This document shows positions 1,586 through 35,478 of a DNA stretch of 38,720 nucleotides, in pieces (the stretch's first letter is position 1; each line of letters opens with the position of its first letter). Source of the DNA: an uncultured bacterium (lineage in GTDB: Bacteria; Latescibacterota; UBA2968; UBA8231). The notes beneath the pieces are model-generated. The model saw nothing but the letters and a program-made list of their open reading frames with translations, searched no databases and was not told the DNA's origin. The stretch is from contig CAXGRO010000002.1 in the NCBI GenBank assembly GCA_964012055.1, positions 1 to 38,720 of the forward strand, read 5' to 3'. Position numbers and translations under genes: made by a program.

Positions 1586-1591
1586 AAGGAA

Positions 1592-2779: not shown

Positions 2780-2780
2780 A

Positions 2781-3209: not shown

Positions 3210-3463
3210 ATTTCTTCCCGCTGTGTGCGCAATTCCTGTGTAGAACTCCATGATGGAGTTTTATGGCGCAAATGGTCTTGAATATCCATAGCGCGTTGTA
3301 TATCGGCCTGGCGTTGGTTCTGTGCCTTTTTAGCTGTGTGTTGCTCGTAATAAACGAGTGCTGCCGTGCGTATCAATTGACTACGATTCATGCCTTCTTC
3401 CCGTGCCATTTGGTCTATTTGCAACAATATATCTTCGGGTAGCATAATGTTGACGCGCGGCAT
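3206..3463 (-). CDS. vapB: Ribbon-helix-helix (CopG/VapB-type) antitoxin
   Basis: 85 aa. N-terminal RVNIMLPEDILLQIDQMAREEGMNRSQLIR matches the RHH beta-strand plus two-helix pattern. GGAGAA Shine-Dalgarno 7 nt upstream. 4-nt overlap with vapC. Confidence 0.8.
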   Translation of the reverse strand: MPRVNIMLPEDILLQIDQMAREEGMNRSQLIRTAALVYYEQHTAKKAQNQRQADIQRAMDIQDHLRHKTPSWSSTQELRTQREEI

Positions 3464-3623
3464 GAGGTGATTCTCCTAGGTTATACGATTTATGAGATGC
3501 GGCAAAGTAGCTTAGGGTAGAGCGTTTGTCAAGAGTTATAGATATAGGTGGCGCGGTTTTGCAGGGAGGCCACATTTACAGTTTCTATTTAGTAATATGC
3601 GTAGGCAATAGGATGAAAGGGCG

Positions 3624-4565: not shown

Positions 4566-4573
4566 GGAAAAAT

Positions 4574-4735
4574 ATGGCAAGTAAACTTAGTATAATTAGA
4601 GAATTGTGGGACTTTATGAAAGTGCGCAAGAAGTGGTGGCTTGGTCCCATATTCACCACCTTGATTTTACTTGGATTGTTAATAGTTATGACGCAGGGAT
4701 CTGCAGTAGCCCCTTTTATCTATGCATTATTTTAA
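4574..4735 (+). CDS. Small membrane protein, DUF5989-like (53 aa, not in ORF track)
   Basis: Hand translation: MASKLSIIRELWDFMKVRKKWWLGPIFTTLILLGLLIVMTQGSAVAPFIYALF*. AGGA Shine-Dalgarno 6 nt upstream, 8 nt after the prs stop. The KKWWL...GSAVAPFIYxLF signature is what I recall for the DUF5989 family. Confidence 0.65.
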   Translation: MASKLSIIRELWDFMKVRKKWWLGPIFTTLILLGLLIVMTQGSAVAPFIYALF

Positions 4736-4784
4736 TTAAGGCCATAAATCGACGCATAATTTATATTATGTCAAATAGGTAAAA

Positions 4785-4813
4785 TTGACACATTCAAACG
4801 CCTCTGCTATCTT
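4785..4813 (+). promoter_or_regulatory. Sigma70-like promoter candidate for apt
   Basis: TTGACA (4785-4790), 17-nt spacer, TATCTT (4808-4813), about 48 nt upstream of the apt ATG. Confidence 0.35.
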
Positions 4814-4861
4814 AAAGGTAGTATCTTAACTTTAAGTTTTTAAAGAACAAGTATTTTCACT

Positions 4862-5386
4862 ATGGATTCACCTTTAGATCTAAGCAAATATATTCGCAAT
4901 GTAGAAGATTTTCCAAAACCTGGAATCTCTTATAAAGACATTACTACTTTATTAAAAGATGGTAATGTGCTAAAGCAAACCGTAAGAGATCTAAATGGCT
5001 TTTTTCTCGATGATCAAGTCGACTACATAGTGGGGATTGAATCCCGCGGTTTTATTCTTGGTGCTCCGATCGCAGTGGAAAGAGGGTGTGGTTTTATACC
5101 TGTGCGCAAACCGGGAAAACTGCCAGCAGAAACACTAAGCCAAGAATATAGTTTAGAATACGGCAAGGATGCTGTTGAAATTCATGAGGACGCAATCGTA
5201 CGGGGGCAGAATGTCTTAGTTGTCGACGACGTTTTGGCGACGGGAGGTACTATGCAAGCAACCTGTCAGTTGCTCGAGCGCGTGGGGGCCCATGTATTAG
5301 GCATAGCATTCCTCATCGAATTGACTTTTCTAGAAGGTCGAAGACTTTTAAGTGGGCATCGCATTGAGAGTATAATAAAGTATTGA
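4862..5386 (+). CDS. apt: Adenine phosphoribosyltransferase
   Basis: 174 aa with close collinear similarity to E. coli Apt: FPKPGI, ESRGFILGAP, FIPVRKPGKLP, PRPP loop VLVVDDVLATGGT. Confidence 0.92.
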   Translation: MDSPLDLSKYIRNVEDFPKPGISYKDITTLLKDGNVLKQTVRDLNGFFLDDQVDYIVGIESRGFILGAPIAVERGCGFIPVRKPGKLPAETLSQEYSLEYGKDAVEIHEDAIVRGQNVLVVDDVLATGGTMQATCQLLERVGAHVLGIAFLIELTFLEGRRLLSGHRIESIIKY

Positions 5387-5420
5387 TTCACACTAATATA
5401 TGGAATATAGGAAGTAGAAA

Positions 5421-6089
5421 ATGGCCGGAGAAAGTAAGCGCTTAAGCAAAGATGAACTTAGAGAGGATGAAATTGCTGAATGGATCCTACAGGCGGCTGA
5501 TTTTATTCGCGAGCGCGTCCAGTATTTTATTGGGGGTGCTATAGGAATCATTTTGCTTATTTTTCTGATAGATTTATTTATTGATAAGCAAGAAGAAGAT
5601 AAACTGCATGCCGCTGAAAAGTTGGGAAATTTGGTCATCGCAGAAGCGGGCGGGGAGGACAGTCGCGCTTTGCAACTTAACGAACAGTTATTGGAAGAAT
5701 TTGAAGGGACACCAGCGGCATCAAAGGGGATTTTATTATTGGCCAATCGCTATTACCGCCAAGGTCGCTATGCTGATGCACAGGGCCTCTACCAACGATA
5801 TCTAAACGATGATATGGCATTGGATGTTTTTGAATTTGCCGCCTGGAATGGATTGGCCGCCTGTATGGCTGCCCAGGGTCAACTACAACAAGCGGCTCAA
5901 AAATACCAAGCCTATGCAGATGCCCATAATAGTGCGCAGGCTTCAGCGCTTGCTTTACAACAGGCCGCGCGCCATCTTGCACTTGCAGGCGATACTGATA
6001 GTCAAAAGCGGGTTTTACAGCGCATTGTTAGGGATTTTTCTACATCGCCAGTGGCTGCAAAAGCGCGAGAAGATCTTGGGATGCTGTAA
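5421..6089 (+). CDS. Membrane-anchored TPR-like protein (YfgM/TPR_21-like)
   Basis: 222 aa. A single N-terminal TM helix (FIGGAIGIILLIFLIDLFI) is followed by helical-repeat sequence rich in A/Q/L with TPR-like YxxGxYxxA spacing. Confidence 0.55.
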   Translation: MAGESKRLSKDELREDEIAEWILQAADFIRERVQYFIGGAIGIILLIFLIDLFIDKQEEDKLHAAEKLGNLVIAEAGGEDSRALQLNEQLLEEFEGTPAASKGILLLANRYYRQGRYADAQGLYQRYLNDDMALDVFEFAAWNGLAACMAAQGQLQQAAQKYQAYADAHNSAQASALALQQAARHLALAGDTDSQKRVLQRIVRDFSTSPVAAKAREDLGML

Positions 6090-6105
6090 AGGTTGATTAC
6101 GAGAA

Positions 6106-7035
6106 ATGGCAACACTTAAGGTTTTTGCCGGTCAAAGCAACATACCTTTGGCGACAGGCATCGCAGATGCTCTAGGGGTTCAGCTTGGGGCAATCGAGTT
6201 TGTCCGTTTTAGCAATGAGAATATCAAAGTTAAAATTTGTGAAAATGTACGTGGATGTGATGTCTTTCTCATCCAAACATCCTGCCCACCGGTTAACGAG
6301 CATCTTATGGAGTTGCTCATCACCCTAGATGCACTAAAGTTTGCTTCTGCGGGGCGAATAACAGCAGTATTGCCTTATTACCCTTATGCTTTGGCCGATA
6401 GTAAAGACGAGCCGCGAATTTCAGTAGCAGGTAGGTTGATGGCCGACTTGCTTACCGAAGCTGGTGCAGACCGCATACTCACAATGACTTTACACAGTCC
6501 CCAGATCGTTGGTTTTTGTCGGATTCCCGTGGACCAATTGAGTGGTGTGCCAACGATTTGCGATTATTATACTGGCGTGGATTTGGCCAACTCTGTTGCT
6601 GCTGCACCAGATATTAGCCGCGCAAAAGTAACGGAGAGTTATGCAAAGAAATTGGGCTTACCTTTAGTTGTTATTGATAAACGCAAAAGTGCAGACGGCG
6701 AAATGCGGGTGCAGGGCGTTATAGGCGCGGTGGAAGACAGAGACGTTTTATTTTTTGACGACGAAATTATAACCGGAGACTCCATCTTTGAAGGGGCCGC
6801 TGCGGTTAAAGAGAGGGGGGCGGGCAAAATATATGCTGGTTGTGTCCACGGCACGCTGGCATCTGGAGCAGTGGAGCGCATTGCAGATTCTGGACTGGAA
6901 TGCTTGGCCGTAACCGATACCATTCCATTAAGTGATGCGAACGAAAAGATTAAAATTTGCTCTGTTTCTCAGCTATTTGCGCGCGCTATAAAGGCCATCC
7001 ATCAAGAAACCTCTATTAGTGCGCTTTTTCAATGA
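6106..7035 (+). CDS. Ribose-phosphate pyrophosphokinase family, divergent copy 2 (paralogue of 3624-4565)
   Basis: 309 aa with the same architecture as copy 1; roughly half the positions are identical by eye. Shared blocks: RITAVLPYYPY, DEPRIS, RLMADLL, AGADRILTMTLHSPQIV, RIPVDQL. The ARQDRK-equivalent stretch reads ALADSK. Confidence 0.8.
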   Translation: MATLKVFAGQSNIPLATGIADALGVQLGAIEFVRFSNENIKVKICENVRGCDVFLIQTSCPPVNEHLMELLITLDALKFASAGRITAVLPYYPYALADSKDEPRISVAGRLMADLLTEAGADRILTMTLHSPQIVGFCRIPVDQLSGVPTICDYYTGVDLANSVAAAPDISRAKVTESYAKKLGLPLVVIDKRKSADGEMRVQGVIGAVEDRDVLFFDDEIITGDSIFEGAAAVKERGAGKIYAGCVHGTLASGAVERIADSGLECLAVTDTIPLSDANEKIKICSVSQLFARAIKAIHQETSISALFQ

Positions 7036-7066
7036 TATATCGTCAGCCCTTACTTTGGATTTTGCC

Positions 7067-7267
7067 ATGATTGCCGTGCTTGCAGCCAATCCATATTTAG
7101 GTATCGAAGCTCCTGATATGGACATGGTGTACTATCTTTTTTCTGTCATTGTGGTCGTCTTCATCTTTATGGCCATTTTTCGCAGCATTGGGCGGATGAA
7201 GGAGAAAAAAAGGAAGAGCAATCCGCATGGCAAACCTATCGTAAAATGGCCAAAGCACGCGGTTTGA
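7067..7267 (+). CDS. Possible small single-pass membrane protein (start uncertain: 7019/7067/7118)
   Basis: One hydrophobic helix (VYYLFSVIVVVFIFMAIF) followed by the basic stretch RMKEKKRKS. No homology recognised. Overlaps the PilZ ORF by 22 nt in another frame. Confidence 0.3.
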   Translation: MIAVLAANPYLGIEAPDMDMVYYLFSVIVVVFIFMAIFRSIGRMKEKKRKSNPHGKPIVKWPKHAV

Positions 7268-7995
7268 CACCTGTTGAAATAAATGTATTAAGGCGGACAA
7301 CGGCTTATGCACAGGTTAAGAGGTCAGCCGAACTATTGGCTTCAATTCAATTGTTTGACCGCTGTGTTGCAGAATTAACAGAAGCGGGTTCCGCAACCTC
7401 TAGTGATCAAAATCACTTGGATGCAGTGCGTAAAAAGCTCGTTGTCAAGGCGGAAGTTTGGGACAGACGACGCAACAGGCGGCAATTGGAAAGGGCTCAA
7501 ATAAACTTTCCGATACAATTTTTATGGGTCGCACAAGATAAAGTCGACGAAAAAGTAAAAATAGCTAAGCTCAGAGAAGGGGAAAAAGAAGTTGAGCGCA
7601 TAGAAGCTGTTTGGGGTGAATTGGTTGAAGAAATAGAGCCTTATACAGGTTGTATTAATAATATTAGTGCAGGAGGAGGAACTCTATCAACACAGGCCGA
7701 TCTCACTATTGAAGGTGCCGATTATGTTCAATTTATCCGCACTGGCGAAGAAAATGTGCTCGATATAGATGGGCTTTTAGGGCAAATCGTTGCAGTGGAA
7801 CCTAAAGAAGAGGATAAAGACCTTGTGCTCCACATTAGCTTTTTCTCTTATCCACAGGAAAAGCGGCGGGAAATTATTCGTCTCGTCTATGCCGTCGAGG
7901 CAGAGGAGGATCCTTCTTCCCCCCAAAAGCCAGTAGATGAAGTGAGACGCGATACTCCCCAAGTATCCGATCCGTCTACGTCCTCAACACATTAA
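7246..7995 (+). CDS. PilZ-domain (c-di-GMP-binding type) protein
   Basis: 249 aa. RRxxxR-type motif DRRRNRRQLER and a downstream (D/N)xSxxG motif NNISAGGG, then a beta-barrel-like tail (LHISFFSY...IIRLVY). Confidence 0.6.
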   Translation: MAKARGLTPVEINVLRRTTAYAQVKRSAELLASIQLFDRCVAELTEAGSATSSDQNHLDAVRKKLVVKAEVWDRRRNRRQLERAQINFPIQFLWVAQDKVDEKVKIAKLREGEKEVERIEAVWGELVEEIEPYTGCINNISAGGGTLSTQADLTIEGADYVQFIRTGEENVLDIDGLLGQIVAVEPKEEDKDLVLHISFFSYPQEKRREIIRLVYAVEAEEDPSSPQKPVDEVRRDTPQVSDPSTSSTH

Positions 7996-8000
7996 GTCAA

Positions 8001-8723
8001 GTGAAAATTGCCGTAATTGCAGATGTTCATGCCAATCTTGAGGCACTCGAAGCTGTACTGATCGATGTGGATAAGATTGGGGTGGACCGCATTATCTGCC
8101 TTGGTGACGTGGTTGGCTATGGGATTGATCCCCTAGCCTGTATCAATCGCTTGAAGGAAGTTGAAGCCGAATGCTTACTGGGCAATCACGATCAAGCCAC
8201 TATCGACCGGACCCATATTAAAACTCTCAATCCGCTAGCTAGGGAGTCTGTTTTGAGGACTTACGACTTTCTTGGCGAAGCAGAGATAAATTACCTGCAA
8301 AGTTTTTCATTTCGCCGCGTCGAAAGCGGCGGCGTATTTGCGCATGCTAATCCCTTAAAACCTGAAGATTGGACCCATATTTATCTCTACGATGAAGTTG
8401 TGTGGTGTATGCAGCAGATGAGCTGGCCAATAGGATTTATTGGGCACACGCATCACCAGTCAATACACTGCAAAATAGGCGATCAAGTAATTCCTCTGAC
8501 ATCTTCTAAGGTGGCGGTAAATCGCCATCAATGTCTGATCAATCCCGGCAGTGTGGGGCAGCCACGGGATGGCGATTGGCGTGCAGCTTATGCCATATGG
8601 GAGATTGAAGCCGAATTGGTGGAATTGCAACGAGTTGAATATCCAGTCAAGGTAACCCAGAAAAAAATGATACAAGCTAGTTGGCCAAGCTACTTGGTTG
8701 AGCGTCTAGGAAAAGGCGAATGA
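8001..8723 (+). CDS. Metallophosphoesterase (YfcE/MJ0936-like calcineurin-fold phosphodiesterase)
   Basis: 240 aa, GTG start. Motifs DVHAN, GDVVGYG, GNHD, GHTH. Confidence 0.8.
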   Translation: MKIAVIADVHANLEALEAVLIDVDKIGVDRIICLGDVVGYGIDPLACINRLKEVEAECLLGNHDQATIDRTHIKTLNPLARESVLRTYDFLGEAEINYLQSFSFRRVESGGVFAHANPLKPEDWTHIYLYDEVVWCMQQMSWPIGFIGHTHHQSIHCKIGDQVIPLTSSKVAVNRHQCLINPGSVGQPRDGDWRAAYAIWEIEAELVELQRVEYPVKVTQKKMIQASWPSYLVERLGKGE

Positions 8724-8732
8724 AAGGTCCCG

Positions 8733-9635
8733 ATGTTTAAAAAGGGCCGAGTAGTACGTGTTTCGGGGATGCAATGTTTGGTGGATATTGATGGCCAAGA
8801 ATGGCAATGTGACGTGCGCGGTCGCCTCAAAGAGGGGCTGCGACAAACGACCTCTCCGGTAGTGGTGGGTGATTGGGTTGAGATAACTTCTACGGATTCC
8901 CACAATGGGGTAGTTGAGCGCGTGGGGCCGCGTAGTGCGAAACTTTCTCGTTCGGCCAGTGGTTCGCGCCCTTTTGAACAAATAATAGCCAGTAACCTGG
9001 ACCAACTGGTCATTGTTGTAGCATTGGCACAGCCTGCCCTGCGTCCTGGTTTTATAGATCGTGCAATTGTAATGGCACAAAAAGGGGGGATTAAACCTGT
9101 TCTTTGTATCAATAAGATCGATCTATATCCAATGGAAAAAGGGCATAGAATAGGCAACGTGTACCGCGCTTTAGGTTACAATGTGATTTATACAAGTGCC
9201 AGAACAGGTCATGCGATAGGCCAATTGGAGGGGCTGCTTAAAGGGCGGGTTTCTGCTTTGGTGGGACATTCGGGGGTTGGCAAATCATCACTGCTCAATG
9301 CGATCGATCCCGCTTTCTCTATTAAAACGCAAGAAATGATGAGCAGGCACGATCGGGGTCGACATACTACAACCAGCGTTCAACTTTATCGCTTAGGCGG
9401 CGATAGTTATGTTGCGGATTGTCCAGGTATAAAAACTTTACAGCTTTGGCAAGTTGACTCTACAAGTCTGGCCGAGTACTTCGTTGAGATGGCTCCATTA
9501 ATAGGTGAATGTCAATTCCGCAATTGCATGCATTTGCACGAACCTAGTTGCGCTATTCGCACTGAGGTCGAAATGGGCGGGATAGACGATTTGCGCTACC
9601 AGGGGTACAAACGCATAATGGAATCATTGGTATGA
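8733..9635 (+). CDS. rsgA: Ribosome small-subunit-dependent GTPase A
   Basis: 300 aa. N-terminal OB fold, circularly permuted GTPase (NKIDL before GHSGVGKSSLLN), C-terminal zinc knuckle CQFRNCMHLHEPSCA. Confidence 0.9.
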   Translation: MFKKGRVVRVSGMQCLVDIDGQEWQCDVRGRLKEGLRQTTSPVVVGDWVEITSTDSHNGVVERVGPRSAKLSRSASGSRPFEQIIASNLDQLVIVVALAQPALRPGFIDRAIVMAQKGGIKPVLCINKIDLYPMEKGHRIGNVYRALGYNVIYTSARTGHAIGQLEGLLKGRVSALVGHSGVGKSSLLNAIDPAFSIKTQEMMSRHDRGRHTTTSVQLYRLGGDSYVADCPGIKTLQLWQVDSTSLAEYFVEMAPLIGECQFRNCMHLHEPSCAIRTEVEMGGIDDLRYQGYKRIMESLV

Positions 9636-10585
9636 ACGAAATTTCTGTTGAGGAAATGTTGCATAAATTTGGTCGTCGTTTGGGGCTGGAACTAGTGGCT
9701 GGTGAAGAAGGATTAAGCCGGTTGGTACTACAGGCCGATACGCATAGACCGGGATTAGCCCTGGCGGGTTTTGTCGAGGTGTTTAATTACGATATGATAC
9801 AGGTATTGGGCAATCACGAAATAGAATACTTGCGAAGTTTGCCCAAACAGCGCAGGAGTGAATCGCTCCATATCATATACCAATTTAACATGCCATGTGT
9901 AATTGTTACAGGTAGAGGGAGGCTATTGCCCGAATTGCGCGACTTTGCCAATAGATGCGATATTCCGCTTCTTCGCTCCCAATTCGATACCACCCAATTT
10001 AGTCATTTGCTACATTTTTATTTGGATGGCGTTTTTGCTCCAAAGGTGACTTTGCATGGAACCTTATTGGACGTAAACGGTATAGGCTTGCTCTTTACGG
10101 GACGAAGTGGTATAGGAAAGAGCGAAGTCGGTTTAGACCTTGTAGAGCGGGGTCACCGTCTGGTTGCAGATGATACGGTTATCGTCACTCGCCAGACTCA
10201 AGGCATGTTGATCGGAAATAGCCCAGAAGTTTTGCAGGACCATATGGAAATTCGCGGCATTGGCATTGTAAATATTAAAAAAATGTTCGGGGTTCGTGGG
10301 GCGCGTCGGCAGAAGCGGGTAGAAGTGATGGTGAATTTAGTCGATTGGGACGAGAAATACGAATATGAACGAGTTGGGTTAGACGATAAAGTAAAAATTA
10401 TACTGGGCGTTGAAATACCTGAAATAACCGTACCGCTAGTGCCGGGTAAAAATATAACTGTCATCGCCGAAACAATTGCACTCAACCATCTTTTGCGTAT
10501 AGACGGCGACCATCCTGCCCGAGAATTTAATTCTCGCTTATTGTGCAATATTGGTCAAAAGCAAAACAAACCGGTGGGGTCTTAA
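9632..10585 (+). CDS. hprK: HPr kinase/phosphorylase
   Basis: 317 aa. Walker A GRSGIGKSEVGLDL, LVADD, and the EIRGIGIVNI signature. ATGA overlap with the rsgA stop. Confidence 0.9.
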   Translation: MNEISVEEMLHKFGRRLGLELVAGEEGLSRLVLQADTHRPGLALAGFVEVFNYDMIQVLGNHEIEYLRSLPKQRRSESLHIIYQFNMPCVIVTGRGRLLPELRDFANRCDIPLLRSQFDTTQFSHLLHFYLDGVFAPKVTLHGTLLDVNGIGLLFTGRSGIGKSEVGLDLVERGHRLVADDTVIVTRQTQGMLIGNSPEVLQDHMEIRGIGIVNIKKMFGVRGARRQKRVEVMVNLVDWDEKYEYERVGLDDKVKIILGVEIPEITVPLVPGKNITVIAETIALNHLLRIDGDHPAREFNSRLLCNIGQKQNKPVGS

Positions 10586-10677
10586 ATTAAACAGGCTTGA
10601 TGTATATTTCATCCATCAATGGCATATATATTGCTCTATATGACCTAAAGCTGTATTATGCCTGGAGGTGGAAATAA

Positions 10678-11679
10678 ATGCCCAAATTTCACTGGTTAGT
10701 CGTTTCCCTGTGCCTAATCCCCGTCCCGGGCACTGCTCAATCATCCACACTAAAAGCTTCAAAATACGATGTCGAGTCTCATTTGCGCCAAGAACTCAAA
10801 AAGCTGAGACGTTGGGGTATCGACAAACTACTGCGGACTGAGCGAGCGGTAGATATACAACAAAGGAAACGCGCTAATTATAGTACAAATCCAGAAGAAT
10901 TAACTCTGCTTGCTGATGACGAAGATGGTGAAGTAAGGTTTTATGTGGCGTCGAATAAACATACGCCCCTAGGTATTAAAATGCGTTTGGTTGGCGATCC
11001 GCTGCCTTTTGTGCGCAGTGGGGTAGCATTGGCCATAAAATGGGATCCTTTGGATTCGCCTAATGTTAAAAATATAACCGACATGATAATCCAGGAGTTG
11101 GCAAAAGATCCCCAACCTATTGTTCGCATGAGCCTTGCCGGCAATCTAAATTTGTCACCTTCAGCGTATGAAACCCTAGCCCAAGATCCAGATTATATAA
11201 TACGTCAGAAAGTTGCAAAAAACACACATTTGCCAAAGAGTGCTTTAAATATCTTAGTCCAAGATACTGTGGAAGTGGTGCAAGTACAGGCTCTTAAGCA
11301 TAGAAATATTGATATATCCTGGCTGAGAAATATGAGTGGAGACCAATCGCCGATTGTGCGATTGGCGATTGGTCAAAATACCAATACTCCTGCAACAATT
11401 TTAGGTCAATTAGGACTGGACAGCGAACCTAGTATTAGGTTAGCTGTAGCTCAACATAAAAATACAGCACAACAAACTTTGGAACTTTTAGCTGAAGACG
11501 ATGATATAACCGTTTTAATGGCCGTAACTGACCATGTCAAGACCGATCGGACTATGCTAATGAATCTAGCCTTCAATTCTTCCGATGCCGATGTTCGTAT
11601 GCTGGCTAAGAAGCGTTTGGAGCCCTTCCTTAGAGAAGAGATACAGGACGATATCTTGGAGCGCTGGAAGGCAGAGTGA
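10678..11679 (+). CDS. Secreted leucine-rich-variant (LRV)/HEAT-like repeat protein
   Basis: Signal peptide (LVVSLCLIPVPGTAQS). About 9 tandem 24-26-aa repeats of the form D-x-x-x-x-(V/I)R-x-x-(V/L)A-x-N-x-x-(T/L)P, for example DQSPIVRLAIGQNTNTP and DSEPSIRLAVAQHKNTA. GGAGGTGG Shine-Dalgarno. Confidence 0.7.
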   Translation: MPKFHWLVVSLCLIPVPGTAQSSTLKASKYDVESHLRQELKKLRRWGIDKLLRTERAVDIQQRKRANYSTNPEELTLLADDEDGEVRFYVASNKHTPLGIKMRLVGDPLPFVRSGVALAIKWDPLDSPNVKNITDMIIQELAKDPQPIVRMSLAGNLNLSPSAYETLAQDPDYIIRQKVAKNTHLPKSALNILVQDTVEVVQVQALKHRNIDISWLRNMSGDQSPIVRLAIGQNTNTPATILGQLGLDSEPSIRLAVAQHKNTAQQTLELLAEDDDITVLMAVTDHVKTDRTMLMNLAFNSSDADVRMLAKKRLEPFLREEIQDDILERWKAE

Positions 11680-11701
11680 TAAAATTGTAAATACTCATTA
11701 T

Positions 11702-11738
11702 AAAAAGGCTCTTTGGCATAGAACCAAAGGGCCTTTTT
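11702..11738. terminator. Bidirectional rho-independent terminator between convergent genes
   Basis: GGCTCTTTGG (11707-11716) pairs with CCAAAGGGCC (11724-11733), one non-Watson-Crick pair, 7-nt loop. Flanked by A5 and T5. Confidence 0.6.
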
Positions 11739-12003
11739 AACGTGATTCTGTTTGTTTTTGTAACATTCTTTCTAAATTTACAACTACGTTGCGCATAGCG
11801 GTCAGCTTTGTACGCAACATTTCAGTTTCAGTCTTGAGGTTGTCTTCTTTTTCTGATACCTGATCTAATACACGTCTTAGATCTGATGCTGATTGGTAAT
11901 CTTTTTCTCTGCGCTCTCGCAATTTGCGCAAACGCAGGGCAGTAAGATATTTTGTAATAGCTACGACAATAAAGGCTAAAAATGCCCAAATTAAACCGTT
12001 CAT
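11737..12003 (-). CDS. Hypothetical single-pass membrane protein with coiled-coil tail
   Basis: 88 aa. N-terminal TM helix (LIWAFLAFIVVAITKYL), then charged heptad-like sequence. No family recognised. Confidence 0.45.
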   Translation of the reverse strand: MNGLIWAFLAFIVVAITKYLTALRLRKLRERREKDYQSASDLRRVLDQVSEKEDNLKTETEMLRTKLTAMRNVVVNLERMLQKQTESR

Positions 12004-12177
12004 ATATATGGGATAGACATATAGGGGGTTAGTTTAATTGACTATAAAAAAAATATAAAAAAAGCCACAATAAGGGAAGGTAGCGCAATATACGTTTAAA
12101 TTTGCCCTGAATTTTTGTCCAGTGTATTTTATGAATTAAACAGTGATACTCTTTAGACCCAATACCCCCTATAACGC

Positions 12178-13050
12178 ATGAGTAAAATTGGATTGGTTCT
12201 TATTGGAGAAGAGAATATATTCCAACATATAAAGGCTATTTCCACAGTTCCAGAGTATTTTTTCAGAGAGGAGCTCGTGGGCAATAGAGGGGACGATACT
12301 AACGCTTTGCGGGATTCGACATCAGAAGCGGCAGTTATTTTAACTGGTTTAGTTGAAAAGGATTATTGGATCAGTGAGGCATTAAAAAACAAAAAGCATG
12401 TAATAACATATCCGCCTATTTGTAAAAGTTATAAAAATGCTAAAGATATATTTTATTTAACTCAAAAATACAATAGACATTTATTTTTCTTTTACTCACA
12501 GGGTTGGTATAAACTTAAAAATATAATTCGTTCTTTGATATCAAAAGATCATAGGTTGGGAGTTGTGCTGGCAATAGATCTAAAGCTTGAGGTGTCTCAA
12601 AAACAAATAAAATTTGATGATTTGGGGATTGTTGAAAGTTATTGTTATGAATGTTTAAACTTATTGAACACTTATGAGAATCCCATAGATGTCGTTTGGG
12701 CCAGGACTAGGGCACTTGCTTTAAATCGGCCATTTGAAGATTGGGCATGGATGCAATTGCGTTTTAAAAATGGTATAGAGGCTACCGTTCATATAAACGG
12801 GCTATCTGAAAAAGCATATTGGTCTGTCGATATATTTGGCACGGCAGGCCATGTAAGATATTCTAATGATCGCGATCTATTCAATTCCAATGGGTTGGTC
12901 GGCCAATATAAACATTGGGCTAATGCTGTAGTGATGAGAAGCGGTGGAGAAGAAGAGGAGTATCTTTCAAATTGGCGTATTATAGAATGGATTCAGCAGG
13001 CAGCCCGTATGGATATGCCAATCATTAGTAAAGAGGTGAGAATTGGATGA
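12178..13050 (+). CDS. Gfo/Idh/MocA-like protein with degenerate cofactor and catalytic motifs (possible pseudoenzyme)
   Basis: 290 aa, collinear with the oxidoreductase family: KIGLVLIG..., ALKNKKHVITYPP, C-terminal ATVHINGLSE...VDIFGTAGHV. GxGxxG is replaced by LIGEEN and EKP by YPP. Confidence 0.5.
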   Translation: MSKIGLVLIGEENIFQHIKAISTVPEYFFREELVGNRGDDTNALRDSTSEAAVILTGLVEKDYWISEALKNKKHVITYPPICKSYKNAKDIFYLTQKYNRHLFFFYSQGWYKLKNIIRSLISKDHRLGVVLAIDLKLEVSQKQIKFDDLGIVESYCYECLNLLNTYENPIDVVWARTRALALNRPFEDWAWMQLRFKNGIEATVHINGLSEKAYWSVDIFGTAGHVRYSNDRDLFNSNGLVGQYKHWANAVVMRSGGEEEEYLSNWRIIEWIQQAARMDMPIISKEVRIG

Positions 13051-13594
13051 TCAATTAAGCGAAAGATCGCCCATCGTATTTTCCGTTTGTTTGGCTGTTG
13101 GATTACTACTGATAGTTGTGCTACTCAATTTATTAGGTCGTGAAGAAGTCCCGATAAAAGAAGACCAGTTTTATCAATTGCTTGATGATGGAATGATTGT
13201 GAGTATTGAAATCGTGCCATCTGGTCTAATTGCTCATTTAAATAGGAGAGTTAGAATTAACGAAGATGGGCAAGAGAATTATGCAAAAATTATATGGTTG
13301 CTAAGAGAAATAGATGTTTCTTCTGGAGAGAGGGCTGACTGGGAGCAAGCCGGTATTGCTGTAAGTTATCGCGATGAGGAAGGATATGGCTGGCGGTCCG
13401 TTGGGGGATGGTTACTCATATTTTTGTTTTTAAGTGTTGGCGGGTGGTATATCTGGAAGCAGATACAAGAAGATCGTTCAGGTAGGGGAAGCCCTAGAAG
13501 GAGATTGCAAAAGTTGGAACAAGATTTTGAAGAGGGGAAAATAGGGGCGGAAGAATATCAAAAGAATAAAGAAGCAATATGGGCTGAAATGTAA
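13043..13594 (+). CDS. Two-TM membrane protein with FtsH-N-terminal-like periplasmic loop and C-terminal SHOCT-like motif
   Basis: 183 aa, TTG start with GAGGTG Shine-Dalgarno, 8-nt overlap with the upstream gene. TM1 is IVFSVCLAVGLLLIVVLLNLL and TM2 is GWLLIFLFLSVGGWYIW. C-terminal LQKLEQDFEEGKIGAEEYQKNKEAI resembles SHOCT. Confidence 0.5.
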   Translation: MDDQLSERSPIVFSVCLAVGLLLIVVLLNLLGREEVPIKEDQFYQLLDDGMIVSIEIVPSGLIAHLNRRVRINEDGQENYAKIIWLLREIDVSSGERADWEQAGIAVSYRDEEGYGWRSVGGWLLIFLFLSVGGWYIWKQIQEDRSGRGSPRRRLQKLEQDFEEGKIGAEEYQKNKEAIWAEM

Positions 13595-13603
13595 TAGCTA
13601 AAT

Positions 13604-15391
13604 ATGGGTAAGATCAAGCTTTTAAGCGAAAATATAGTTCATAAAATAGCCGCTGGTGAAGTTATAGAGCGGCCAGCCTCTGTAGTAAAGGAATTGGTTG
13701 AAAATTCAATCGATGCCGATTCCAAATCCATTCGCATAGAAGCCACCGGCGGAGGAAAAAAAAGCATCATAGTTGCAGACGACGGAATTGGAATGAGTGC
13801 AGAGGATTTAAGATTGTGCGTCATGCGTCATGCAACTAGTAAAATGTCTTCACCTTCTGACTTATTTGCCATCTCTTCTTTGGGATTTAGAGGTGAAGCC
13901 ATGGCAAGTATTGGGGCTGTATCGAGTATGAGTATAGAAACTCGTTCTCGTGAAGAAAACGAGGGGGCTCGATTGTATCTCGAGGGGGGGATATTAGGCG
14001 ATATCCTGACATTTGGAAGGGGGGTTGGGACCACGGTTAAAGTGCGTAATTTGTTCTTTAATACTCCTGCTCGTCGTAAATTTCTACGTCACATCGATAC
14101 TGAAACAAGGCATATTACACAAAATATTTCCAACTTAGCATCAGCCTATCCCTCAATATCATTTGAATTTATACACCAAGATAGACAAGTTTTAAATTTT
14201 AAGGTTGCAAATAGGAGAGAGCGTGCCCGGGATTTACTCAACGTTATTGACCCATTGTATATAGAATTTGAGGAATCGGGAATACGAGTAGAAGGCGTAA
14301 TAACTTCGCCTGAAGAATGCGGAAAGTCAAAGGGTAAACAGTATTTAATTGTTCGGGGAAGGCCGATTGTCTCAACTGCAATAAGCAAAGCTATATATCG
14401 AGGTTACGGGGGGGGGTTGCCTCAGGGAATGCATCCTAGTTATATCGTTTGGTTGGATATTGATCCAAGTATGATTGATGTTAATGTGCATCCCACGAAA
14501 AAAGAAATACGATTTGCAAATGAAATTATAATCGTTCAAACTGTCGATAAGGCAATACAACGTTCATTAGATATTCCTGAAACCATGGGATTTTCTTATA
14601 GGCAGGAAGCAATAATACCACCAAATATTCCCAAAATTAGTGAGGAGTTTTCAGATTTCACGTTGGCAAAAAAGCCTGATACGGCCAAGAACGTAGAGGA
14701 ATTTTCTAATGTAAGTGAGAATGAAATTGACGTTGAACAGGGGGTATTGTCGCTAACTGTATCTTCAGATAGTATTAGTAGTAATTATAGTCAATCAGAT
14801 AGTGTATCTCGCGATATGCTATCTCAACCTGAATTTTATAAACAAATAGCTGATAAATATATCTTAATTAATTATGAGGATGCTATAGGTATTATTGATC
14901 AACAGGTAGCCCATGAGCGCATCAGGTACGAAGAGGCTATGGCGCATTTAAAAGGAACAAATATTGACGTGCAGCAATTGTTAATACCTGTTACTATTGA
15001 ATTAAATAGTTTAGAAATGGAGTTGGTTAGAGAAAATATAAGGCTATTTGAGAGATTAGGATTTGGAGTTAGAGAATTTGGTCTTGGATCGATTGTAGTT
15101 GATGCGATCCCTGTAGCCTTGGAGCATTGGGATGGCGGTCAGGTATTTTATGATATCATAAATGAACTTTTGGATGATAACGAGATGGGGGTAGTGTCAA
15201 TTGAAGAACGGTTGGCAAATACATATGCTAAACGGACAGCTATTCGAAGTGGTCAGAAACTTAACTTTGACCAAATGAAAGGAATTGTGCAGGATTTGTT
15301 TTCTTCTAATGAATCATATGTAGGACCAGATGGTAAATTGGCGGTGATCAAGATCTCGGTTAATGAATTAAATAGAATGTTTGCTTCTTAG
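13604..15391 (+). CDS. mutL: DNA mismatch repair protein MutL
   Basis: 595 aa. GHKL ATPase N-terminus (IAAGEVIERPASVVKELVENSIDA, DDGIGM, GFRGEA, NLFFNTPARRKFL). The C-terminal dimerisation domain is present but has atypical endonuclease motifs (see findings). Confidence 0.9.
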   Translation: MGKIKLLSENIVHKIAAGEVIERPASVVKELVENSIDADSKSIRIEATGGGKKSIIVADDGIGMSAEDLRLCVMRHATSKMSSPSDLFAISSLGFRGEAMASIGAVSSMSIETRSREENEGARLYLEGGILGDILTFGRGVGTTVKVRNLFFNTPARRKFLRHIDTETRHITQNISNLASAYPSISFEFIHQDRQVLNFKVANRRERARDLLNVIDPLYIEFEESGIRVEGVITSPEECGKSKGKQYLIVRGRPIVSTAISKAIYRGYGGGLPQGMHPSYIVWLDIDPSMIDVNVHPTKKEIRFANEIIIVQTVDKAIQRSLDIPETMGFSYRQEAIIPPNIPKISEEFSDFTLAKKPDTAKNVEEFSNVSENEIDVEQGVLSLTVSSDSISSNYSQSDSVSRDMLSQPEFYKQIADKYILINYEDAIGIIDQQVAHERIRYEEAMAHLKGTNIDVQQLLIPVTIELNSLEMELVRENIRLFERLGFGVREFGLGSIVVDAIPVALEHWDGGQVFYDIINELLDDNEMGVVSIEERLANTYAKRTAIRSGQKLNFDQMKGIVQDLFSSNESYVGPDGKLAVIKISVNELNRMFAS

Positions 15392-15394
15392 AAA

Positions 15395-15431
15395 AAAGCA
15401 CATAAAATATCATATGTAAATCATAAAAATC
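15395..15431 (+). repeat. Left dif/lox-like recombinase core site: AAAGCACATAA-AATATC-ATATGTAAATC, plus ATAAAAATC extension
   Basis: 28-bp core at 15395-15422, starting 3 nt after the mutL stop. It is an inverted copy of the site at 16603-16636. Its two arms are an imperfect palindrome of each other (CATAA / ATATG). Confidence 0.55.
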
Positions 15432-15452
15432 TTTATACAATTCTACTATATC

Positions 15453-15517
15453 GGTTTAAGTGCCACATTTTAAACTACTGATAATACCCCTTATAGATAG
15501 TATCATTGGTTTAAGTG
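15453..15517 (+). repeat. Two direct copies of GGTTTAAGTG (15453-15462, 15508-15517) upstream of the recombinase gene
   Basis: Exact 10-mers 55 bp apart, each preceded by TATC and followed within 5 nt by TTTTAA. Possible accessory (arm-type) or operator sites. Confidence 0.3.
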
Positions 15518-15643
15518 TTTTAATAACAGATATTTAAAATTTGAGAGGGTTGGCTATCTTTTTAATTTTAGTGAGTGACAATAATTAAATTCATAACTAT
15601 ATTAGAATCCTCCCAGCTTTCCCTTTTTAATTCTATAGCCCTC

Positions 15644-16594
15644 ATGAATAACCTTGTAGTAAGTAATCAGAACGATCTTCATGTTTTGACTGAAGATCCC
15701 CTGGAACAGTTTTTGGCCGGTCAACTTAGTAAAAGTACGCGTCGGGCCTATCAGGCAGATCTAATATATTTTTTCCATTTTATCGGGTTAAATAATCCAA
15801 CGAAGGACGATCTATATGCTATAACATTTCATCATGTTATAGCATACCGTAATCAACTGGCAGCAGATGGTTACAAGCGTTCTACTATTAATCGCAAATT
15901 ATCCAGCATAAAAGCATTTTTTAAACTGTTTGTAGCCGCGGGCCAATTAGAGCACAATCCGGCCGATTCAACTTTGGTGCGCGGATATAAATTGGATTCC
16001 ATCCTTAGCGGTAAAGCCATTGCATCTGAGCCGCTGAAAAAGATGTTGAATTCTATCTGTGAAGAGGAAAATGACTTAATTAGAAGTCGTGATATGGCAC
16101 TGTTTCACATATTGGCCTATGCTGGATTGCGTCGCTCCGAAGCGGTCAATATGCAATGGAAAGATATCCGTCAAGATGGAGTGTTCTATATTCTCAATCT
16201 CCCCAATACGAAATCGGGTGTCCCCCAGGATGTAAAATTGCAATCCGTAGTCATGCACCATCTCAATCTTTATCGCGACACGCTAAAGACTAATGGATAT
16301 TCTTTAGCCGATAAGATCTTTATCAGCCTCTCGCGAAATGCGTCGCATGGCCAGCCAATGACAAGTCAATCGGTTAACTTAATTGTAAAAAAATATGCAC
16401 GCAGAGCCGGAGTGCCACAAAATATAACAGCTCATATGTTTCGCCATACTTGCTGTACCCTTGCCATTGAAGGCGGCGCTAAACCACAGCAGGTGCAAGC
16501 CCACTTACGCCACAAAGACTTAAAAACAACCATGAGATATTATGAAAATCGCGAAAAAATAACAGATAATGCTTCTGATTATATAAACTTGTAG
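15644..16594 (+). CDS. Tyrosine recombinase (Xer-like / phage-integrase family)
   Basis: N-terminal SAM-like core-binding domain (LSKSTRRAYQADLIYFFHF). Catalytic R (GLRRSEA), H-x-x-R (HMFRHTCCT), and LRHKDLKTTMRYY with the nucleophile Y. The start is placed at the first ATG (MNNLVV); the track's GTG at 15575 is an alternative. Confidence 0.85.
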   Translation: MNNLVVSNQNDLHVLTEDPLEQFLAGQLSKSTRRAYQADLIYFFHFIGLNNPTKDDLYAITFHHVIAYRNQLAADGYKRSTINRKLSSIKAFFKLFVAAGQLEHNPADSTLVRGYKLDSILSGKAIASEPLKKMLNSICEEENDLIRSRDMALFHILAYAGLRRSEAVNMQWKDIRQDGVFYILNLPNTKSGVPQDVKLQSVVMHHLNLYRDTLKTNGYSLADKIFISLSRNASHGQPMTSQSVNLIVKKYARRAGVPQNITAHMFRHTCCTLAIEGGAKPQQVQAHLRHKDLKTTMRYYENREKITDNASDYINL

Positions 16595-16602
16595 TATTTT
16601 TT

Positions 16603-16636
16603 GATTTTTATTTACATATTAATGTTTATGTGCTAT
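16603..16636 (-). repeat. Right dif/lox-like core site (read on - strand): ATAGCACATAA-ACATTA-ATATGTAAATA, plus AAAATC extension
   Basis: 28-bp core at 16609-16636. Each arm matches the left site at 10/11 positions, but the central 6 bp match at only 2/6. It lies between the recombinase stop (16594) and the leuS stop (16677). Confidence 0.55.
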
Positions 16637-16676
16637 TCTTCACGTGAAATTTAGGTGTTCTAAAACATGGGTTTTT

Positions 16677-19565
16677 CTAAACAACGATATTCACAATTCT
16701 ATTAGGTACCAAGACAAACCGTTTAATCGATTCAACTGAAGACACATATCGTTTAATTGCATCGATTTCTAAAATCTTCTCTTTCAATTCATTTTCACCG
16801 ATATCTGTTGGTACTTCAATATTACCTCGCATTTTACCGTTAACTTGAATTGGCAACACAATTATATCATCTACTATAAATGATGGATCTGCTTCTGGCC
16901 ATTGGCCAGTTGCTAATTCAGAGTTTCCATCAAAAGCTATTTCCCAGATTTCTTCGCAAATATGAGGGGCCAATGGATTTAATAACTTTAGATAATTTCT
17001 AGCTAAATCCTCCGGAATCGCCTTAATACCAACAAGCTCATTATTAAACTCAATTAGAGAAGCAATTGCAGTATTAAATCTAAGTCCTTCTATATGTTCG
17101 GTTACTTTCATAATGGTTTTATGCATCAATCTCCTCAAGTCATCAGTCATATCCCCTGCAATTAGAGATTGTCTATCAGGTCCAATGAAATTGCGCCATA
17201 CTCTTTGTAGAAATCTCTGCATACCTCTTATGCCTTCCATACTCCAGGGAGCACTTGCTTCCAGCGGCCCCATATACATCTCATATAGGCGTAAGGTATC
17301 TACCCCAAATTCGTCCCCAACTTCTTCTGGTGGCAATCCGTTCTTAAATCGCTTGCCCATTTTACCACTGAAACGTTGTAATTTTTCTCCTGTTTTTGCA
17401 TGATAAGCAGTATTCTCACGTAGGTCTACTTCGCGAATATCAATATAAACACCTCTTTGATCTGCAAAAGCATCTGCCGTAATCATACCCTGATTAAATA
17501 GCTTCTTAAATGGCTCTGGTGTTCCAACTAAATCCAGATCAAACAATACCTTATGCCAGAATCTGGCGTAGAGAAGATGCAGAACGGCATGTTCGGCTCC
17601 GCCAATGTACAGGTCAACAGGCATAAAGTATTGCTGACGGTCTGTAGCACAGAAAGAGGTGTGGTTTGCAGGGTCTATAAAACGAAGATAGTACCAGCAA
17701 GAACCAGCCCACTGAGGCATAACATTCAATTCCATATCTCCAACGCCGACATCATTTTGATTAACTTTGCGCCAAGATTCAGGCGCCCTACCCAAAGGAG
17801 AAGATACCGGCATATTGGGATCATCTGATGTTATCGGTCTAAAATCATCCATTTCAGGCAGAATAACGGGTGGATCTATTCCCACTACACGACCATCATG
17901 AAGAGTGGCTATAGGGAAAGGCTCACCCCAATAACGTTGTCGAGAGAAAATCCAATCCCTCAGTTTATAATGGACAGACTTTTTCCCTATTCCTGACTTT
18001 TCGAGGGAATCAGTCATTCTCTTTTTTGCCACAGCTGTAGCCAATCCAGTTATAGAATAGGGACTATCTCCCTCTACGGGCGAATTAATAGAAACACCTT
18101 CGCCAACAAAACATCCATCTTCTATACCATCAGGTGGCACTACAACTGACAAAATAGGCAATGAGTATTTTTGAGCAAAATCATAATCTCTTTCGTCATG
18201 GGCAGGTACTGCCATTATCGCTCCAGATCCATAATCCATGCTAACATAATCTGCTACAAAAATTGGTATAATCTGTTTATTTACAGGATTTACTGCTGTA
18301 ATTCCCGTAAAAACACCAGTCTTCTCCTTTTCATCTCTAACTACAGCTGTCTGACTAATTGCCGCACGCACATATTGTTCAACTGTTGAGCGAATATCTG
18401 CATTTATATTATCACCTTTCCATGAATCCTCAGTAGTAGAAGGCCAATTTTCGGGTACTAAATATCTATCACTTTGCGAATTTATTAGAGGATGTTCGGG
18501 AGCTACCACCATAAACGTAGCACCAAATAGAGTATCAGGCCTGGTTGTAAACACATTTAGAACGTCTATTTGTTTTCCAGTTAATGGATGAATTACGGGA
18601 AAATCAACTTGGGCACCTTCGCTGCGGCCGATCCAATTGCGCTGCATGATCTTTACTGGCTCGGGCCAATCTAGACTAAAACCACCTCCCCTACCGTCAG
18701 GTAATTTATCGGCATCTAAATCTTCTAATAATCGCTCGGCGTAAGCAGTTATTCGCATCATCCATTGTCTTAGTGGGCGTTTATAAACTGGATAATTTCC
18801 TCTTTCGCTCTTGCCTTCACTGGTGACTTCCTCATTGGATAAAACTGTACCCAATCCAGGGCACCAATTTACAATCACCTCCTCTTGATAGGCCAAACGA
18901 TAATTATTAAGGATGGTTTCTCGCTGTTCCACACTGAGACTCTGCCAGCTAACAGTAGATTCTGCTTCGACTAGTTTAATGTCTTTATCGCTTAACTTCC
19001 GATTACCCGATTCAAATTCCTCTATTAACTCGGCTATAGGCCGAGCTTTGCCCTTTAATTTTCGGCCTGTGGAGTCTTTCCAATTATAGAAAGGGTCAAG
19101 CCAGCTATTGAATATTTGCAGAAAGATCCATTGAGTCCATTTATAATAATCTTCACGAGATGTAGCTATTTCACGATCCCAATCGTAGGCTAAACCAAGA
19201 AATTGTAATTGTTTGCGGATAGTATCTATATTATCCTCAGTTACTATTGCTGGATGTACATTGTGTTCAATGGCATATTGCTCCGCCGGCAGTCCAAAGC
19301 TATCAAATCCCATGGGATGCAATACGTTAAAGCCCTGCATACGCTTAAATCGGGTATAAATATCGCTGGCTATATAGCCTTTAGGATGGCCAATGTGTAA
19401 TCCTGAACCACTGGGATAAGGAAACATATCTAGTATGTAGCATTTTGGCTTCTCTGAATCAAAGTCATCATCATTGGGATTAGCTGTTTTAAAAGTTTTA
19501 TCCGCCAACCAACGTTCGCGCCATTTCTTTTCTATTTCGCGATAATTATACGAACCCTCTTTCAT
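16677..19565 (-). CDS. leuS: Leucine--tRNA ligase
   Basis: 962 aa. HIGH motif (LHIGHPKGY), KMSKS-type motif (GKMGKRF), CP1 editing insertion, and a typical bacterial LeuS N-terminus (YNYREIEKKWRERW). Confidence 0.95.
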   Translation of the reverse strand: MKEGSYNYREIEKKWRERWLADKTFKTANPNDDDFDSEKPKCYILDMFPYPSGSGLHIGHPKGYIASDIYTRFKRMQGFNVLHPMGFDSFGLPAEQYAIEHNVHPAIVTEDNIDTIRKQLQFLGLAYDWDREIATSREDYYKWTQWIFLQIFNSWLDPFYNWKDSTGRKLKGKARPIAELIEEFESGNRKLSDKDIKLVEAESTVSWQSLSVEQRETILNNYRLAYQEEVIVNWCPGLGTVLSNEEVTSEGKSERGNYPVYKRPLRQWMMRITAYAERLLEDLDADKLPDGRGGGFSLDWPEPVKIMQRNWIGRSEGAQVDFPVIHPLTGKQIDVLNVFTTRPDTLFGATFMVVAPEHPLINSQSDRYLVPENWPSTTEDSWKGDNINADIRSTVEQYVRAAISQTAVVRDEKEKTGVFTGITAVNPVNKQIIPIFVADYVSMDYGSGAIMAVPAHDERDYDFAQKYSLPILSVVVPPDGIEDGCFVGEGVSINSPVEGDSPYSITGLATAVAKKRMTDSLEKSGIGKKSVHYKLRDWIFSRQRYWGEPFPIATLHDGRVVGIDPPVILPEMDDFRPITSDDPNMPVSSPLGRAPESWRKVNQNDVGVGDMELNVMPQWAGSCWYYLRFIDPANHTSFCATDRQQYFMPVDLYIGGAEHAVLHLLYARFWHKVLFDLDLVGTPEPFKKLFNQGMITADAFADQRGVYIDIREVDLRENTAYHAKTGEKLQRFSGKMGKRFKNGLPPEEVGDEFGVDTLRLYEMYMGPLEASAPWSMEGIRGMQRFLQRVWRNFIGPDRQSLIAGDMTDDLRRLMHKTIMKVTEHIEGLRFNTAIASLIEFNNELVGIKAIPEDLARNYLKLLNPLAPHICEEIWEIAFDGNSELATGQWPEADPSFIVDDIIVLPIQVNGKMRGNIEVPTDIGENELKEKILEIDAIKRYVSSVESIKRFVLVPNRIVNIVV

Positions 19566-35306: not shown

Positions 35307-35478
35307 AAATTATATGTCTTTAATTTAGGCTATGGACATTAATTTTATTAAATCTCGCGTGGCTGATCTTTAGTTGAGGAGATAAGACTAAATTGGGTAA
35401 TGCAGGCCGTAGGACTCCAGAAAATAACCTTCAAATAAATTGGCGATGTTGTAGCTGATCTAATATCATACGCATTTC

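Follow-up and report, generated by a model that had tools for sequence, protein, structure and literature searches.

The Xer recombinases and their dif sites are a near-universal answer to chromosome dimers, and the exceptions XerS, XerH, XerA and XerL have each changed thinking on how the reaction is controlled. Hosts with a single recombinase are the streptococci and lactococci (XerS), Helicobacter and Campylobacter (XerH) and the Legionellales (XerL). Inverted sites flanking a recombinase-encoding segment, with both orientations found in nature, are known from Hin/hix in Salmonella and FLP/FRT in the yeast 2-micron plasmid; Hin is a serine recombinase that switches a flagellin promoter, and FLP inversion serves amplification of plasmid copy number. 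In classical dif sites, conservation is higher in the arm on the XerD side than in that on the XerC side, and species differ in the centre (PMC2731167). On Acinetobacter plasmids, reversible inversions between oppositely oriented pXerC/D pairs have been shown experimentally (PMC9947245; PMC13141974). Here we analysed an Xer-like tyrosine recombinase gene (xer) lying between two inverted dif-like sites in a 38,720-nt stretch of DNA from an uncultured bacterium of the phylum Latescibacterota (positions 1 to 38,720 of contig CAXGRO010000002.1, assembly GCA_964012055.1; hereafter the window). Literature searches turned up no account of an Xer system in Latescibacterota, nor of an xer cassette that inverts at a replication terminus.

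Comparison with related loci suggests that the phylum's single-copy Xer-like recombinase and its dif-like sites form an invertible cassette at the replication terminus, a reading to which we give a probability of about 0.68. Below, L-numbers denote related loci and P-numbers recombinase proteins; P0001 is that of the window.

Inversion between the paired sites in related genomes

The paired sites, the recombinase gene and its two neighbours are arranged in the window as follows.

15395-15422, + strand: left dif-like core site S1; outer arm AAAGCACATAA, centre AATATC, inner arm ATATGTAAATC
16609-16636, - strand: right dif-like core site S2; reads ATAGCACATAA-ACATTA-ATATGTAAATA on the - strand
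15644-16594, + strand: Xer-like tyrosine recombinase gene xer; 316-aa product, identical to P0001; sole gene between S1 and S2
13604-15391, + strand: mutL (Pfam/NCBIfam); left flank, last gene of the + strand block; mutL-xer synteny phylum-wide
16677-19565, - strand: leuS (Pfam/NCBIfam); right flank, first gene of the - strand block; synteny conserved

S1 and S2 are 28-bp core sites, each with imperfectly palindromic 11-bp arms around a 6-bp centre (11-6-11). S1 starts 4 nt after the mutL stop codon (15389-15391), and S2 lies 15 nt beyond the xer stop codon, where + strand and - strand genes converge. Each arm is identical to its counterpart at 10 of 11 positions and the centres agree at 2 of 6. 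The flanks of both sites have an inner AAAAATC run in common, with a 3-nt offset. On re-reading, the sites and the matches of arms and centres were exactly as the original prediction had given them, and the inner extension it described was present. S1/S2 form the longest inverted repeat between 15000 and 17000 in a repeat search (33 nt, 79%). The pattern GCACATAA-N6-ATATGTAAAT, with up to 3 mismatches, matched only twice in the 38.7-kb window, at S1 and S2, with 0.06 matches expected; 0 of 100 shuffles gave two matches. Scored with an arms-only weight matrix, S1 reached 31.1 bits and S2 32.2 bits, and the maximum of 40 locally shuffled windows was 20.2 bits. The shuffled-sequence check that had been proposed thus gave no comparable inverted matches. 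As a special pair, S1 and S2 stand in being the only strong matches in the window, but further copies of the family occur at 35293-35320 and 4749-4776.

Sequence comparison indicates that segments bracketed by such sites have repeatedly flipped in close relatives and that the sites recombine. Between L014 and L009, whose DNA is 96-97% identical, a 3.5-kb inter-site segment carrying orf183, mutL and xer is inverted, with breakpoints inside the 28-bp sites; the crossover in this pair could not be placed more finely, as the sites differ at too few positions. The same inversion separates L014 from L024 and L026, and L017 from L019. In a tree of the segment from 25 genomes of this clade the orientations are interspersed, with a parsimony minimum of 8 changes, and the closest pairs of opposite orientation are 1.8% apart. 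Closed long-read chromosomes carry both orientations, which makes an assembly error unlikely. Inversion relative to both flanks is also seen for the xer-only cassette, the type found in the window (L002 vs L082, and L134). An inverton, which the original prediction had ranked last among its readings, is thus the best supported of them, with at least 8 flips in 25 genomes and breakpoints in the sites.

The low rank had been based on the differing centres, which were held to argue against inversion. In three independent flips (L015/L010, L018 vs L053 and L018 vs L021) the outer flanks are exchanged and each centre, with its inner arm, remains attached to the segment; the centres differ, for instance ATAATT vs AATTTT or AATTTA. 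Because these flips joined sites with differing centres, unequal centres are no bar to inversion here, and the objection does not hold for the relatives. The linkage of the centre to the inner arm would place the crossover at the point where outer arm and centre meet, or outside it, with a full-exchange model disfavoured only by about 1 in 8 from the three events. Partner centres are identical in 6 of 21 clade genomes, against 2.2 expected by permutation (P ~0.009, phylogeny ignored), which suggests occasional homogenisation.

The two types of segment differ in what they carry. In segments of the orf183-mutL-xer type the distance between S1 and the orf183 start codon is 5-6 nt. In the xer-only cassette no switched promoter or coding sequence was identified, and the promoter lies inside the cassette. 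The orf183 gene (13043-13594, + strand in the window) encodes 174-188 aa with no significant Pfam family, always precedes mutL in the phylum and belongs to the invertible segment in one clade.

Polar sites at the probable replication terminus

Converging genes together with a maximum of cumulative GC skew mark the replication terminus, a consequence of established strand asymmetry. Open reading frames of at least 100 aa in the window all lie on the + strand from 194 to 16594, short shadow frames apart, and all on the - strand from 16677 to 38701. To the left GC skew ranges from +0.12 to +0.29 and to the right from -0.12 to -0.20, with a cumulative maximum at ~16 kb. Because gene-strand convergence and the GC-skew switch coincide at the xer locus, the window, judged by its sequence, spans the terminus of replication in a chromosome of marine Latescibacterota type. 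The order of genes is hprK-orf290-orf183-mutL-xer/leuS-aspS-pnp-rpsO-ribF-truB-rbfA-infB, the slash marking the strand switch. Strand convergence and skew flip recur in L082, L084 and L064, and together with the synteny in distant relatives, closed chromosomes included; the order mutL-xer/leuS is held across genomes of 38-68% GC. In the P0005 lineage (L072-L081) a Tn3-family transposon, with a DDE_Tnp_Tn3 transposase and a resolvase, sits just past the xer-side site and displaces leuS (6378-10167 in L072), an example of mobile DNA accumulating at the terminus.

We surveyed sites in 105 distinct related loci from representative genomes and metagenomes. A metagenome search with P0048, aimed at close relatives of the flipping clade, returned mostly diverse lineages, which were used for the survey of site positions. 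The weight matrix was built from AT-rich lineages and is less sensitive in GC-rich ones, so the counts are lower bounds; when intergenic DNA of GC-rich lineages was read by eye, degenerate single, tandem or facing sites were seen. The 6-bp spacer was found in 127 of 128 sites, and allowing spacers of 5-8 bp added L012 only. In that locus the site after xer (3940-3975) has a 7-bp centre, ATGTCTTATAA-AATGTTA-ATATGTAAACA. The inner arm, (T/A)TATGTAAA(T/C)A, is well conserved and the outer arm, NNGNCNYATAA, varies between lineages.

Polarity was almost invariant. To the left of xer 43 sites were '+' and none '-', and to the right 84 were '-' and 1 was '+'. A '-' site within 250 nt of the end of xer was present in 57 of the 92 loci with enough downstream flank, a '+' site upstream in 36 of 62, and both partners in 38 of 105. 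The '-' site just 3' of xer is the most conserved in position (L027 has lost it altogether), and the upstream partner shifts between lineages. This '+' partner lies directly after mutL, as S1 does in the window, in L064/L099, L072/L097, L096, L001, L029/L082 and L058. It precedes mutL in L111/L112, orf183 in a large clade with outer arm ATGTCTTATAA, and orf290 in L088, L090, L092, L094, L095 and L137. Many relatives carry 2-4 sites; in 21 kb of L082 there are only two, both flanking xer. A weight-matrix scan of the unrelated loci L060-L063 found no family sites. The recurrence of the twin inverted layout in 38 of the 105 loci shows that it is not chance, and orthologous recombinases, which might have lacked flanking sites, are accompanied by them across the phylum, though not at every locus.

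The window's two weaker sites bring its total to 4 copies in 38.7 kb.

35293-35320, - strand: additional polar site AAGACATATAA-TTTATG-TTACGTAAATC; 24.8 bits, reached by 0 of 40 shuffles; oriented as S2
4749-4776, + strand: weaker polar site TCGACGCATAA-TTTATA-TTATGTCAAAT; 17.5 bits, 0.075 expected per shuffled window; oriented as S1

The first overlaps the ATG of miaA (34380-35306, - strand; Pfam IPPT). In other bacteria miaA usually follows mutL, and an inversion between S1 and this site would put miaA directly after mutL, a link that we regard as speculative. The second sits between prs and a gene for a 174-aa phosphoribosyltransferase, and the corresponding intergenic region of L084 contains a 23.2-bit site (1950-1977, +).

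Site number and layout vary widely between lineages. Many have an extra copy over the leuS start codon, the inner arm of which, TTATGTCAAC, contains the ATG; leuS then lies between two direct '-' sites, the other being the one after xer (L014 6869-6896, L087-L095, L104/L105 and L084 13939-13966). In L002, leuS is missing between xer and aspS, the product expected of excision between two direct sites. Tandem arrays of 2-3 direct sites ~49 bp apart occur just after xer in L129 (5424-5549) and L130 (5211-5336), and tandem arrays downstream of xer were also found in L041/L117, L119 and L050. Closely facing inverted pairs just after xer were seen in L044/L116 and L133.

The recombinase family and its control region

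The xer product has a simple two-domain Xer-like architecture, with Pfam SAM_1 (Phage_int_SAM_1) and Phage_integrase domains within its 316 aa and no arm-binding domain. Residues R163/R164, K190, H264, R267, H290 and Y299/Y300 are invariant in 19 homologues, and the Arg-Lys-His-x-x-Arg-His-Tyr active site is intact. The best NCBIfam matches are XerC, XerD and XerA, none near its cut-off: the protein scored 128.2 bits with the XerC model TIGR02224 (cut-off 335), 126.0 with the XerD model TIGR02225 (330) and 110 with the archaeal XerA model (220). The XerS model gave 72 bits (267). Sequence matches in the PDB include E. coli XerD 1a0p (E 6e-13), Pyrococcus XerA 4a8e and, weakly, XerH 5jjv (E 3e-7, without any stretch passing on its own). 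Earlier assignment of the gene as Xer-like, and as an intact recombinase that is alone between the sites, is upheld by the domains, the best-matching models and the invariant catalytic positions, though the scores are far below the cut-offs. By curated models the protein is not XerC, XerD, XerS, XerH or XerA, and its sequence places it in an Xer-like family that is uncharacterised and is conserved throughout an uncultivated phylum. The top PDB match (E 7.6e-15), chain 14 of 9i5v, has 401 aa and bears the label 'Ribosome-associated translation inhibitor RaiA'; since its alignment spans the entire Xer-like catalytic region, it would seem to be either mislabelled or a fusion.

The family amounts to about one 50%-identity cluster among 1.8 billion cluster representatives. 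Its nearest sister families are 35-49% identical and are also below every named Xer model; homologues 58-79% identical come from Latescibacterota metagenome-assembled genomes (MAGs) and some MAGs labelled Gemmatimonadota. Smyshlyaev et al. mention a 'Cand' subgroup of Xer-related recombinases from candidate phyla. Among 59 matches in representative genomes the recombinase occurs once per genome, and across genomes of 38-68% GC it retains 58-67% identity, compared with 61-65% for LeuS and 38-48% for MutL. Since it is as conserved as LeuS and single-copy, the recombinase behaves in these comparisons as a housekeeping enzyme, not as the integrase of a mobile element.

The cassette appears to carry xer with its own conserved promoter.

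15575-15603, + strand: promoter-like GTGACA-17-TATATT; 10/12 matches, ~40 nt before the xer ATG, inside the cassette

Both hexamers and their spacing are kept in L064, the closest relative, where the neighbouring intergenic DNA has diverged; this conservation points to promoter function. Two direct repeats of GGTTTAAGTG (15453-15462 and 15508-15517) were confirmed by repeat search. These repeats, noted in the original prediction, are real but not conserved in L064, and we dropped them as a part of the system. That prediction had left out this lack of conservation, as well as the position of the locus at the GC-skew and gene-strand switch and the further polar copies. Between the repeats a block at 15476-15500, GATAATACC..TT.TAG.TAGTAT, is conserved in L064 and may act as an operator or belong to the control region of xer. 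An Rfam scan of 15200-16800 gave no match at E up to 1, and no terminator-like sites were found around the locus. The coding-strand GC skew of xer is ~0 to -0.11 in the window, L064, L082 and L084, against +0.1 to +0.23 for mutL and other co-oriented genes. Such values are consistent with a gene that has lain in either orientation at different times, and amino-acid composition may also account for them.

Proposed mechanism, alternatives and known systems

We propose that the 28-bp sites are the recombination sites of the product of the gene at 15644-16594. The variable outer arm would correspond to the XerC side and the conserved inner arm, TTATGTAAA, to the XerD side. S2, at the convergence point, would be the likely primary dif for resolution of chromosome dimers, a role suggested by location, conservation and copy number. 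The inverted S1 would make xer and its promoter an invertible cassette. A flip would shift the convergence point to the opposite end of the cassette, leaving the replichores undisturbed and the genes still co-oriented with replication; both orientations would be viable because the cassette sits exactly at the convergence point. Whichever way the cassette lies, the site 3' of xer is always at the point of gene convergence. The original prediction's idea of a true dif plus a second copy fits in part: it is compatible with an inverton, the site 3' of xer being fixed in position and its upstream partner moving, but a decoy or operator as the main role of the second copy is less favoured.

If exchange takes place where outer arm and centre meet, one strand pair may be swapped, and replication or another resolvase would then have to resolve the junction that is left. 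XerC-only reactions between heterologous centres likewise exchange one strand pair and are resolved later (PMC5357621; discussed in PMC9947245). Selection could account for the strict polarity, since with a copy in the wrong orientation xer, mutL or leuS could be deleted. Where the segment is of the orf183-mutL-xer type, a flip would possibly change whether the hprK-orf290 unit or leuS reads into mutL.

Several observations weigh against an invertible terminus cassette. All contigs read from the window's lineage and its two nearest relatives, encoding P0001 (1), P0002 (18) and P0005 (24), show one orientation; such contigs are uninformative on minor variants, since assemblies report the majority only. 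Given this single orientation and centres that match at 2 of 6 positions, flipping is probably rare in the window's own lineage. The twin layout is not universal: at a 20-bit threshold no site is recognised after xer in about one third of loci, and in many no upstream partner turns up within 3-4.5 kb; the point is partly eased in that some of the missing sites would reflect failure of the weight matrix in GC-rich lineages. The extra polar copies and tandem arrays are unexplained by a simple model of dif plus partner. The terminus was assigned from 13-39-kb stretches and local skew, not from whole-chromosome skew. Dimer resolution, FtsK dependence and catalysis by this very protein are steps that we infer, and canonical XerC/XerD, if encoded in these genomes, could act on sites of such classical appearance.

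Among the alternatives, the one that survives best, which we still consider unlikely, is a single true dif accompanied by copies that are only bound. On this view the recombinase would use the extra copies (the upstream one and those at leuS, miaA and orf183) as operators or architectural sites in controlling transcription of its own gene or of neighbours, and the inversions would be rare accidental by-products without a role. The upstream partner is in fact always 5' of the transcription unit that holds xer, whether before xer, mutL, orf183 or orf290, and copies lie over or near the starts of leuS (L014 and others), miaA (the window) and orf183. The tandem arrays, too, resemble binding arrays more than crossover sites. 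However, for an accident the inversion is frequent, with at least 8 independent flips among the 25 genomes and some of them separating genomes only 1.8% apart. S1 in the window is ~180 bp upstream of the conserved promoter and does not overlap it, and both S1 and S2 keep the full 11-6-11 crossover architecture with its strict 6-bp spacer. This account is compatible with an invertible cassette and differs from it only on which activity is selected.

It is somewhat less probable that the sites are substrates of canonical XerC/XerD encoded elsewhere, with the enclosed gene a passenger or a specialised third Xer paralogue and the locus a chromosomal analogue of the Acinetobacter dif module. Sites nearly indistinguishable from the classical XerCD dif of deltaproteobacteria, with a conserved XerD-like and a variable XerC-like arm, would suit those enzymes, and on Acinetobacter plasmids oppositely oriented XerC/D sites bracket modules with known reversible inversions. 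Against this, sites and gene are linked in position throughout the phylum while site number and position otherwise vary, and the gene is single-copy and as conserved as leuS, as expected of a housekeeping enzyme. The single-recombinase modules of XerS and XerH likewise place xer beside dif.

More doubtful again is a polar fork trap or terminus-defining array built from Xer parts. In RTP/Ter of B. subtilis and Tus/Ter of E. coli, asymmetric sites form two opposed groups and the gene for the terminator protein lies beside opposed polar sites. The layout here is of that kind, with '+' sites on the left replichore, '-' sites on the right, the gene within the innermost pair and further copies 10-19 kb out. 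The likeness is architectural only: the protein is not homologous to Tus or RTP, nothing points to fork arrest, the recombinase is catalytically intact by sequence, and the comparisons show that the sites recombine. Were it a fork trap, cassette flips would be a side reaction or a way to move the fork-meeting point. A neighbouring and slightly less exotic reading, also doubtful, is that the flip may be a programmed switch of the operon driving mutL, in effect a mutator switch.

We hardly credit the original prediction's mobile cassette, or an element like an insertion sequence whose recombinase gene has terminal inverted repeats. Inverted 28-bp repeats around a recombinase gene look transposable and the bracketed content differs between lineages, but the locus keeps its flanking synteny invariant across genomes of 38-68% GC, occurs once per genome, encodes a protein that diverges in step with housekeeping genes and was seen in no other context; fixed synteny and single copy rule it out. 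Chance similarity, or a family of AT-rich intergenic repeats of the repetitive extragenic palindromic (REP) type unrelated to the recombinase, can be dismissed: the region is AT-rich (36% GC) and weaker copies lie elsewhere in the window, but the match statistics, the few, xer-linked copies found on looking for a scattered REP-like family (4 in the window, two in 21 kb of L082, none in L060-L063) and the phylum-wide conservation of position relative to xer rule it out.

An invertible terminus cassette would offer a natural case for how strictly Xer recombination needs homology in the central region, and for how cells tolerate or use active inversion at a fork-meeting point that encodes mutL. 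The xer gene and its flanking sites would also be a simple terminus marker for Latescibacterota MAGs.

Compared with XerS/difSL, XerH/difH and XerL/dif, the locus likewise has an Xer-like recombinase that is neither XerC nor XerD and a site with asymmetric arms. In the streptococcal and lactococcal XerS system the gene adjoins the site as one module at the terminus, as here (PMC5357621; PMC9765430). The likeness to XerS and XerH lies in this adjacency, and the window's system would by analogy be a single-recombinase one, although its protein falls outside both families. The known single-recombinase modules have one site, whereas here there are at least two, in strictly opposed polarity around the gene. 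Further, difSL is a 31-bp site with an 11-bp centre and difH is also atypical, in contrast to the classical 11-6-11 found here (PMC5357621).

With classical XerCD/dif (E. coli; CodV/RipX in B. subtilis) the locus has in common the 28-bp site, its arms of imperfect dyad symmetry, the 6-bp centre and the location at the GC-skew switch. The sites, described from the start as dif-like, are indeed nearly those of classical dif, such as TTGTCCTATAAGATATATTATGTAAACC of the deltaproteobacterium Syntrophus, and TTATGTAAAC (PMC2731167). However, classical xerC and xerD are unlinked to dif and dif is single on the chromosome, whereas here the gene is linked to the site, and the site is duplicated in inverted orientation and mediates inversion, as the relatives suggest. 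Acinetobacter pdif modules are also bracketed by inversely oriented Xer sites, but they are plasmid-borne and accessory (resistance, toxin-antitoxin), are shuffled between contexts and depend on host XerC/D encoded elsewhere. The module described here is at a chromosomal terminus in synteny fixed phylum-wide, with the recombinase inside, plus or minus mutL. The active Acinetobacter pairs share identical centres (PMC9947245), whilst flips here occurred despite unequal centres. Hin/hix and FLP/FRT differ from the present locus, which has dif-type sites and a terminus location. The family would thus join a classical type of dif sequence, the gene-site linkage of single-recombinase systems and duplicated sites of opposed polarity into an invertible terminus cassette. 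As far as sequence comparison can tell, the layout departs from described Xer/dif systems in its opposed, multi-copy sites and in the repeated flipping of a terminus cassette in which the recombinase gene, joined in some lineages by mutL, is carried.

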